Origin: a virus
Lineage: Duplodnaviria > Caudoviricetes
Virus record (IMG/VR): IMGVR_UViG_3300032093_000005
Length of the DNA: 64,000 nucleotides
Strand: one strand, 5' to 3'
Part shown: positions 59,884 to 60,165 of the stretch, piece by piece
Layout: the number at the start of each line of letters is the position of its first letter
Position numbering within the stretch: the stretch's first letter is position 1
Translations under genes and position numbers: made by a program
Notes under the pieces: generated by a model
Database searches by the model: none
The model's input: only the letters and a program-made list of their open reading frames with translations
What the model was told of the DNA's origin: nothing

Positions 59884-60165
59884 TAGGAGCGGCGAGACTT
59901 GAACTCGCATAGCCGAAGCCGACGGATTTTCTTACCACTACGACTTTCGCCGCCTCATAGAGTTTGTGGTCTGGACTATACCTTCACCATATCTTGTGAT
60001 TTAGGTGCTCCCCGTCTAGTCTCTACACCTTCATCTTTCGATGCTTGGCTCGGTATTGCCATTTTACAGGTTTCACCGAATTTGAGGAGTTACACTCATG
60101 AGGTTTCCCAAATGAGGCTCAATTTTACATAAGTCCGTTGTGTCTACCAATTCCACCACGCTCCC
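59884..60165 (-). tRNA. trnL: tRNA-Leu(UAA) interrupted by a group I intron
   Basis: Exon 1 60131-60165 (GGGAGCG...ACGGACUU), exon 2 59884-59930 (AAAAUCCGU...CGCUCCUA). Spliced form has anticodon stem ACGGA/UCCGU, loop CUUAAAA, long variable arm and T-arm GUUCAAGU; no encoded CCA. Confidence 0.92.
59931..60130 (-). ncRNA. Group I self-splicing intron (200 nt, no ORF)
   Basis: IGS UUGAG; P AAAUUCGGUGAA, Q AAUACCGAGCC, R GUAGAGACUAGA, S AAGGUAUAGUCC; terminal G. Confidence 0.9.

Follow-up and report, generated by a model that had tools for sequence, protein, structure and literature searches.

The window, by which we mean the whole stretch of 64,000 nucleotides that was analysed, belongs to an IMG/VR virus record of 96 kb whose completeness is put at 41%. 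The minus strand of the window carries a tRNA cluster that begins with tRNA-Ile(UAU) (60285..60359), continues with tRNA-Met(CAU) (60208..60282) and then reaches a tRNA-Leu(UAA) gene (60165-59884) that is interrupted between U34 and A35 by a 200-nt intron. The 35 nt of exon 1 (60131..60165) comprise the 5' strand of the acceptor stem (GGGAGCG), the D arm, the 5' strand of the anticodon stem (ACGGA), and C32, U33 and U34, giving ..GGACUU at its end. The intron (59931..60130) starts with AUGUAAAAUUGAGCC and ends in ..GGUAAG. Exon 2 (59884..59930, 47 nt), which starts with AAAAUCCGU, supplies A35, A36, A37 and A38, the strand UCCGU, a long variable arm, the T arm, CGCUCCU and the discriminator A; CCA is not encoded at its end. 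Both exons are supported by ARAGORN and by covariation, in the case of exon 1 in the acceptor, D and anticodon stems. Run on the precursor in its default mode, with no intron option, ARAGORN calls no tRNA at this gene; with introns allowed it reports tRNA-Leu(taa), i(36,200). The exons joined in silico give a canonical cloverleaf that ARAGORN also names tRNA-Leu(taa), of 82 nt to the discriminator (83 nt in the ARAGORN call) and with a 3-bp stem in the variable arm. Cloverleaf, long variable arm, UAA anticodon and discriminator A73 together predict a tRNA-Leu of type II, the type to which bacterial tRNA-Leu belongs.

The intron matches the Rfam model RF00028 over 60140-59954 with 58.5 bits, above the gathering score of 50 (E = 2.9e-12, model positions 1-253); the alignment ends 23 nt before the true 3' end of the intron because the model lacks an extra hairpin, P9a. 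In P1 (60133-60130 with 60121-60118) the exon bases C-U-U and intron A1 lie opposite U10-G11-A12-G13, and at the 5' splice site U34 forms a U.G wobble with G11; the intron closes with the G at 59931. The other helices, all on the minus strand, are P2 (60114-60097, GAAA loop), P3 (60089-60084 with 60013-60008), P4/P5 (60080-60049), P6 (60043-60032, GAAA loop), P7 (60023-60017 with 59978-59973), P8 (60007-59985) and P9/P9a (59970-59934, GAAA loop). A single-sequence fold of the window copy recovers P2, P3, P4/P5, P6 and P9, with a z-score of only -1.97; P8 comes from the consensus fold, and P7 was added by hand to the consensus structure. The P4-P6 and P3-P8 domains are joined by the P3/P7 pseudoknot, which is the arrangement of a group I core. 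The intron may belong to subgroup IC3, with which its helices and its place among bacterial tRNA-Leu introns agree.

The intron of the pre-tRNA-Ile(CAU) of Azoarcus sp. BH72, which is bacterial and about 200 nt long, is the model IC3 ribozyme. We take the window intron to resemble it in size, in helix set, in the GAAA loops on P2 and P9, and in very similar J3/4-P4, P6 and P7 core strings, and to differ from it in the tRNA that is split, in the position within the anticodon loop and in having the extra P9a before the terminal G.

No ORF on the sense strand fits inside the 200 nt, and no endonuclease ORF lies within the intron; a 77-aa ORF on the plus strand (59899-60132) was discarded as an intron gene, being antisense and merely mechanical. 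A putative sigma-70-type promoter, TTGACC-17-TATAAT (60179..60207, minus strand, 11/12 matches), sits between tRNA-Met and tRNA-Leu, 13 nt ahead of the tRNA-Leu start, and sites scoring at least 10/12 recur in 45 of 70 distinct upstream regions of viral relatives. The sequence-only reading of this DNA had described a 200-nt group I intron with all core elements after U34, at the position of the cyanobacterial and plastid trnL(UAA) intron, with a conserved U-G pair between exon CUU and intron, a terminal G, no intron ORF and a sigma70 promoter of its own. This anatomy holds up, now with exact coordinates; the promoter-like site is present as described, and the gene may be transcribed from it.

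Phage context and assembly

Among the genes near the cluster are those for a 1736-aa tail fibre and further tail proteins, for a baseplate hub with lysozyme and for a tryptophan halogenase; the hub protein matches Synechococcus and Prochlorococcus myoviruses only, at no more than 38% identity. The order Ile-Met-(UAA) is also found in most of 80 related viral loci and in cyanophage S-PM2, where Ile-Met-Leu(UAA) lies beside the baseplate lysozyme gene and the Leu gene is intronless. In the freshwater Synechococcus phage S-SRM01 (NC_070963) the flanks are 83% identical to those of the window at the DNA level, and the same place is taken by an intronless 73-nt tRNA(UAA) (L101:2581-2653) preceded by the same promoter-like motif. 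The DNA runs that contain the window stretch are lake and other freshwater metagenomes from 14 studies, plus a batch labelled 'fungus metagenome'. Judged solely from the relatives of the phage, a freshwater picocyanobacterium is the probable host; no psbA occurs in the 96-kb record, an absence that at 41% completeness is uninformative as to a cyanophage.

Downstream of the tRNA-Leu gene is a conserved ORF of phrog_4134 (59545..59910, minus strand), whose listed start overlaps the 3' end of the tRNA by 27 nt and may be over-extended. Directly 5' of the cluster, a 57-aa ORF (60376-60549, minus strand) matches Phd/YefM-type antitoxins (phrog_375, E = 3e-12); its Pfam score is slightly under threshold, and no toxin partner was seen. 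Elsewhere in the window, a giant ORF of more than 3675 aa (1-11025, minus strand, 29% G+C) runs off the window start, G+C climbs to 53% around 18-20 kb (within the 16000-24000 region), and few long ORFs are found on either strand between about 16 and 34 kb.

The demand for this tRNA can be estimated from codon usage. In the long ORFs of the window TTA makes up 272 of 617 leucine codons (44%), and TTA and TTG together 56%, while the 96-kb record contains no second tRNA(UAA). Given this heavy use of TTA and the lack of another tRNA(UAA) in the record, an intron that failed to splice would be costly.

Contigs assembled from independent runs agree with the window without a single difference over 59779-60800 (X10) and 59779-60232 (X11). 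They come from independent studies and cross both exon-intron junctions as well as both phage flanks. The sequence-only reading had itself allowed that the segment might be a host-derived misassembly; contigs of four runs were compared, those of independent studies span the gene, and a misassembly is rejected. One point variant was seen, 60089 G>A in run X4, which turns the first P3 pair from C-G into U.G and keeps the pairing.

In all four DNA runs there is also a contig, deeper than the window form, that joins 59880 to 60215 via 85 other letters. It probably stems from a relative present in the same samples, whose tRNA here is short and intronless; an exact-pattern search of IMG/VR for the form with 59881-60214 replaced by the 85 letters returned nothing. 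None of the RNA runs contained the 5-kb region. When the gene alone was searched for, the freshwater metatranscriptome X21 was found to contain 0.54 of its sampled words, and several runs contained smaller shares; DNA carry-over or a relative could account for the X21 signal.

Covariation and spread among phages

Relatives of the intron were collected by two pattern scans of IMG/VR and by BLAST of GenBank phages, and the counts are lower bounds. Splice sites were mapped by rule: a U before the 5' site, a terminal G, a match in P1, a 7-nt loop and a closed anticodon stem. The alignment used below, A1, holds the 61 distinct viral pre-tRNAs among the matches listed, in 336 columns. From it RNAalifold recovers the four tRNA stems together with P1, P2, P3, P4, P5, P6, P8, P9 and P9a. 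Of the 4132 cells scored on the A1 structure 99.2% are standard pairs, compared with 34-40% in controls where the partners were slid by 1-3 columns, and 44 of the 68 pairs show compensatory changes, that is, changes on both sides. None of 500 shuffles attains any of the observed pairing measures. Every helix is 94-100% paired over the 61 sequences, and compensatory changes fall in four pairs of P3, four of P7, six of P8 and three of P6; P7, which as a pseudoknot builds the guanosine pocket, reaches 100%. A U.G pair occupies the 5' splice site in 61/61 viral relatives, and no variation is seen at the terminal G or in the GAAA loops that close P2 and P9a. These comparisons are strong evidence for what is predicted to be a functional ribozyme, and the view that a group I intron interrupts the tRNA-Leu(UAA) gene of this phage is supported.

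The same intron is widespread in viruses. By these rules a UAA anticodon interrupted after U34 is the unique solution at no fewer than 92 viral loci. For many relatives ARAGORN gives other labels, such as 'tRNA-Tyr(ata)', 'His(atg)' and 'Ser(aga)'; these result from misplaced intron boundaries, and the rule-based mapping returns UAA. The intron also occurs in the huge phages LR756501 (735 kb) and LR756511 (595 kb), and the cultured Agrobacterium jumbo phage Atu_ph07 (NC_042013, about 112,890-113,250; L102:1196-1557) carries an unannotated tRNA-Leu(UAA) with a 278-nt group I intron; the annotation places a small CDS, 'hypothetical protein', over the 3' end of that gene. Further viral tRNA genes are split by related introns, namely Arg(UCU) (at least seven loci), CAU (at least seven) and Ser(UGA) (at least three), with L024, L033 and L098 among such loci; an intron with the same core is further found in Asn(GUU) (at least three), Ile(UAU) (at least one) and Thr(UGU) (at least one). 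At least about 26 more viral loci have the intron core with adequate flanks and no surrounding tRNA. Presumably the core belongs here to introns of protein-coding genes, to which the BLAST matches in Vibrio phage VEN (terminase) and in Pelagibacter phage HTVC120P point.

Used with E-value filters, RF00028 missed the copy at L308:741-940, which reaches 185/200 in local alignment score against the window intron, and it likewise missed the introns of LR756501, LR756511 and Atu_ph07 (L002, L102 and L103). Since it misses true copies, a blank from RF00028 is no evidence of absence, and surveys based on it undercount.

The literature gives a different impression. In the review of Hausner et al. 2014 (PMC3984707) all phage introns then known were in protein genes and none in phage tRNA genes, and the 5292 tRNA introns mapped by Williams 2020 (bioRxiv 10.1101/2020.01.27.920355) came from bacterial and archaeal assemblies only. 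Full-text searches of openly available papers turned up no account of a phage tRNA gene with a group I intron, and no paper containing both 'Atu_ph07' and 'intron' dealt with an Atu_ph07 tRNA. The suspicion in the sequence-only reading that there are few if any such introns in phage tRNA genes thus agrees with the literature searched, but it describes a rarity of annotation and not of nature, the viral loci, huge phages and Atu_ph07 included, having gone unannotated.

Two unrelated tRNA(UAA) bodies carry the intron: the type II tRNA-Leu of the window, and a type I tRNA of 73-76 nt. Between the window and L028 the introns are 96% identical and the exons 46%, and in all there are 41 sequence pairs with an intron identity of at least 95% and an exon identity of at most 60%. 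The type I tRNA(UAA), which has no long variable arm, replaces type II in many relatives (S-SRM01, L015, L023, L028, L029, L043, L057 and others); it accounts for 17 of the 61 genes with an intron in the alignment and for 30 of the 57 syntenic genes that lack one.

To count alleles independently of the intron, we used relatives of the downstream phrog_4134 ORF (73-89% identical) as an anchor, which yielded 68 loci with a tRNA(UAA) at this place. The intron is present in 11 of them (six with type I bodies and five with type II) and absent from 57. The pairs G30-A31/U39-C40 flank the insertion site in 61/61 intron-bearing genes of A1, compared with 34/57 intronless ones, a descriptive count, since the sequences are related; the other 23 of the 57 intronless syntenic genes have other pairs at 30-31/39-40 (A1 columns 32-33 and 287-288). 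The preference may reflect a target requirement of the intron or of its endonuclease.

Lineage of the intron

The degenerate core pattern that was used on the viral contigs also retrieves at least 120 bacterial loci, including many from cyanobacteria, Proteobacteria and Acidobacteria. Trees were built from the 146 distinct ORF-less tRNA-Leu(UAA) introns among the matches listed, of which 64 are viral, 43 cyanobacterial and 39 from other bacteria. Their deepest and best-supported branch, about 1.1 changes per column long, separates 45 rows from 101 (SH-aLRT 100 in the quick tree, 100/100 in the careful one); the trees are unrooted and have about 236 columns, and finer statements from them are unsafe. 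The 45-row clade consists of all 43 cyanobacterial introns and two others, none of them viral, and all 64 viral introns, that of the window included, fall on the 101-row side. There the window intron is placed, in the quick tree, in a 50-row all-viral clade whose nearest rows to it are viral contigs at 96% identity. The viral introns cluster together and, more distantly, with proteobacterial and acidobacterial ones. They are also short: about 200 nt, against 200-322 nt and mostly 220-300 nt for the sampled bacterial ORF-less introns, cyanobacterial ones included. On these trees the intron is a member of a phage-borne lineage distinct from the cyanobacterial trnL intron.

Several known systems resemble it. 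The cyanobacterial and plastid tRNA-Leu(UAA) intron (Anabaena/Nostoc type, 'Leu.3Ug' in Williams 2020) interrupts the same gene at the same site, CUU/AAAA after U34; it too ends in G, has exons that pair in the anticodon stem, places a U.G pair at the 5' splice site and usually contains no ORF. The window intron differs from it in belonging to a separate lineage (100/100), in being shorter (200 nt) and in being phage-borne and not cellular. The Leu.3Ug introns of Proteobacteria and Acidobacteria (Williams 2020) share the site, the side of the main tree split and similar core sequences. However, the main viral clade contains viral rows only, the nearest neighbours of the window are all viral, and the tRNAs that house the phage intron include the short type I. 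All four classical bacterial types of tRNA intron are IC3 (Williams 2020). The introns in phage protein genes (td, nrdB and sunY of T4, and the cyanophage psbA intron with F-CphI, cited in PMC3984707) are likewise phage-borne and patchy, with ORF-less and ORF-bearing forms, and these systems, like SegB in the tRNA cluster of T4, have endonuclease genes beside the target gene, the homing endonucleases of the introns being free-standing or internal; but they split protein genes, and SegB has no link to an intron. The element is thus of a known kind, a group I intron in the anticodon loop at Leu.3Ug, and what is new is the class of host: phage genomes, for which the literature searched has no example and in which the intron is widespread and polymorphic. 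The classical trnL insertion site has also been taken by a lineage unrelated to the cyanobacterial one, and with a second lineage there, identity of site becomes weaker evidence of common descent.

Probable mobility and rival explanations

Homing endonuclease genes are found both inside relatives of the intron and next to the gene it splits. Long relatives contain HNH ORFs (LR756511, L264 and two Bacilli genomes), and the intron of L254 contains a LAGLIDADG ORF. A free-standing HNH gene (phrog_10822) follows immediately on the 3' side of the tRNA(UAA) in 14 of the 68 syntenic loci. One of these free-standing proteins shows 42% identity along its entire length to the HNH encoded in the LR756511 intron (E = 3e-40), and 61% identity to the HNH of L264 over the catalytic half. 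Adjacency and intron presence show no significant association (an adjacent HNH in 4/11 loci with the intron and 10/57 without, Fisher p = 0.22), and, the loci being related, the counts are not independent. Neither inside the window intron nor beside it is there an endonuclease gene, so this copy may no longer move. Taken together, the sequences suggest that the intron is a mobile or recently mobile element, served by an endonuclease in cis or in trans.

Free-standing HNH genes also occur at variable sites in the tRNA cluster of relatives (L308:1034-1507, L295:1046-1507, L317:762-1487 and L291:898-1311), placed either in the gap between tRNA(UAA) and the downstream ORF or in that between tRNA-Ile and tRNA-Met. 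With these variable insertions the tRNA cluster is a homing-endonuclease hotspot comparable to the SegB region of T4.

The explanation we favour, with a probability of roughly 0.85, is that the tRNA-Leu(UAA) gene works in a freshwater phage of T4-like, cyanophage type and is split by a compact, IC3-like, ORF-less intron that self-splices, and that this intron is a selfish passenger of a phage lineage that has moved between tRNA(UAA) genes. Transcription would either begin at the sigma-70-like promoter of the gene itself or read through from tRNA-Ile and tRNA-Met. In the precursor the exons would pair in the anticodon stem and the intron would fold into P1-P9 with the P3/P7 pseudoknot. A free guanosine would attack after U34, held in the U.G wobble of P1; the terminal G (59931) would then enter the same pocket, and the exons would be ligated. 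Because the gene is split after U34, the UAA anticodon exists only once splicing has occurred. Host or phage enzymes would trim the ends and add CCA, and the mature tRNA would read UUA, the commonest leucine codon of the phage. The intron would be a selfish and harmless passenger; it is present in only some closely related phages, and its transfer between unrelated tRNA(UAA) genes would probably proceed via recombination triggered by HNH homing endonucleases encoded beside the gene or in the introns of relatives.

One extension of this explanation, which we would sooner bet against than for, is that the intron protects the DNA of the gene. A free-standing HNH endonuclease of a co-infecting phage would cleave tRNA(UAA) genes that lack the intron, in or close to the sequence of the anticodon loop; the intron, by splitting that site, would make its carrier immune and would be copied into cut genomes, a form of collaborative homing. 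The position of phrog_10822 directly downstream of the tRNA in 14/68 syntenic loci, the intron-borne members of the same family in LR756511 and L264, the presence of the intron in unrelated tRNA bodies and the 61/61 against 34/57 distribution of G30-A31/U39-C40 are all consistent with such protection. However, the adjacent HNH gene and the intron are not significantly linked (p = 0.22, in related sequences whose counts are not independent), the 10 intronless genes that adjoin an HNH gene would need some other immunity, and the window has no HNH gene.

An adaptive role at the RNA level is improbable. The sequence-only reading had speculated that the intron shields the anticodon loop of the precursor from anticodon nucleases or gates the supply of tRNA-Leu during infection, and it is true that the anticodon is formed only by splicing and that group I splicing, which needs guanosine and Mg2+, is tunable in principle. 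No tool result supports the idea, though, and the mature tRNA would be the same as the product of an intronless gene, leaving the usual target of anticodon nucleases unprotected. That 57 of the 68 syntenic relatives do without the intron also fits a dispensable passenger better than a needed regulator.

Lower still we rate capture from, or exchange with, a cyanobacterial host carrying the ancient trnL(UAA) intron; the sequence-only reading had taken the intron to imply capture from, or exchange with, a host lineage. The idea has an obvious appeal, since gene, insertion site and intron class are all those of the cyanobacterial intron and relatives of the phage infect cyanobacteria. However, the 100/100 branch between viral and cyanobacterial introns speaks against it: not one of the 64 distinct viral introns lies in the 45-row cyanobacterial clade, although the pattern used on the viral contigs retrieves the cyanobacterial type too, and the viral introns are shorter than most of those sampled from bacteria. 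Least credible is the reading that the tRNA is a pseudogene containing a dead intron, or that the assembly fused phage with bacterial DNA. It could appeal to the record being a metagenomic fragment and to the intron being known from DNA alone, but it is at odds with helices and usual catalytic-core features that are all intact and covary in 61 relatives, with contigs of independent studies that cross the gene and both phage flanks without differences, and with the same arrangement in dozens of viral contigs and a cultured phage.

Returning to the favoured explanation of a selfish phage intron, its interest is to specialists. The mechanism is textbook; what the system adds is a distinct phage lineage, intron and exon histories that are decoupled, and an endonuclease family that is both intron-borne and beside the gene. 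Phage tRNA genes are a common home of group I introns too, one that standard annotation overlooks, as the blank from default ARAGORN and the unannotated copy in Atu_ph07 illustrate. Where split tRNAs are missed, phage tRNA counts and the arguments from codon usage built on them are biased.

A broader reading, tentative and in our judgement rather more doubtful than probable, is that phages keep their own lineage of group I introns, which colonises tRNA(UAA) genes of any body, and that the cyanophage group preserves every stage in the assembly of a mobile intron on one target gene. The stages would be the intronless gene, the intronless gene with an adjacent HNH, the ORF-less intron alone, as in the window, the ORF-less intron with an adjacent HNH, and the intron with the same HNH family inside. 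If this is true, the Bonocora-Shub pathway for the birth of mobile introns becomes testable in natural populations and in the cultured phages S-SRM01 and Atu_ph07. The natural series of presence and absence, together with the shared HNH family, would in any case make this a workable system for asking how introns and endonucleases unite.
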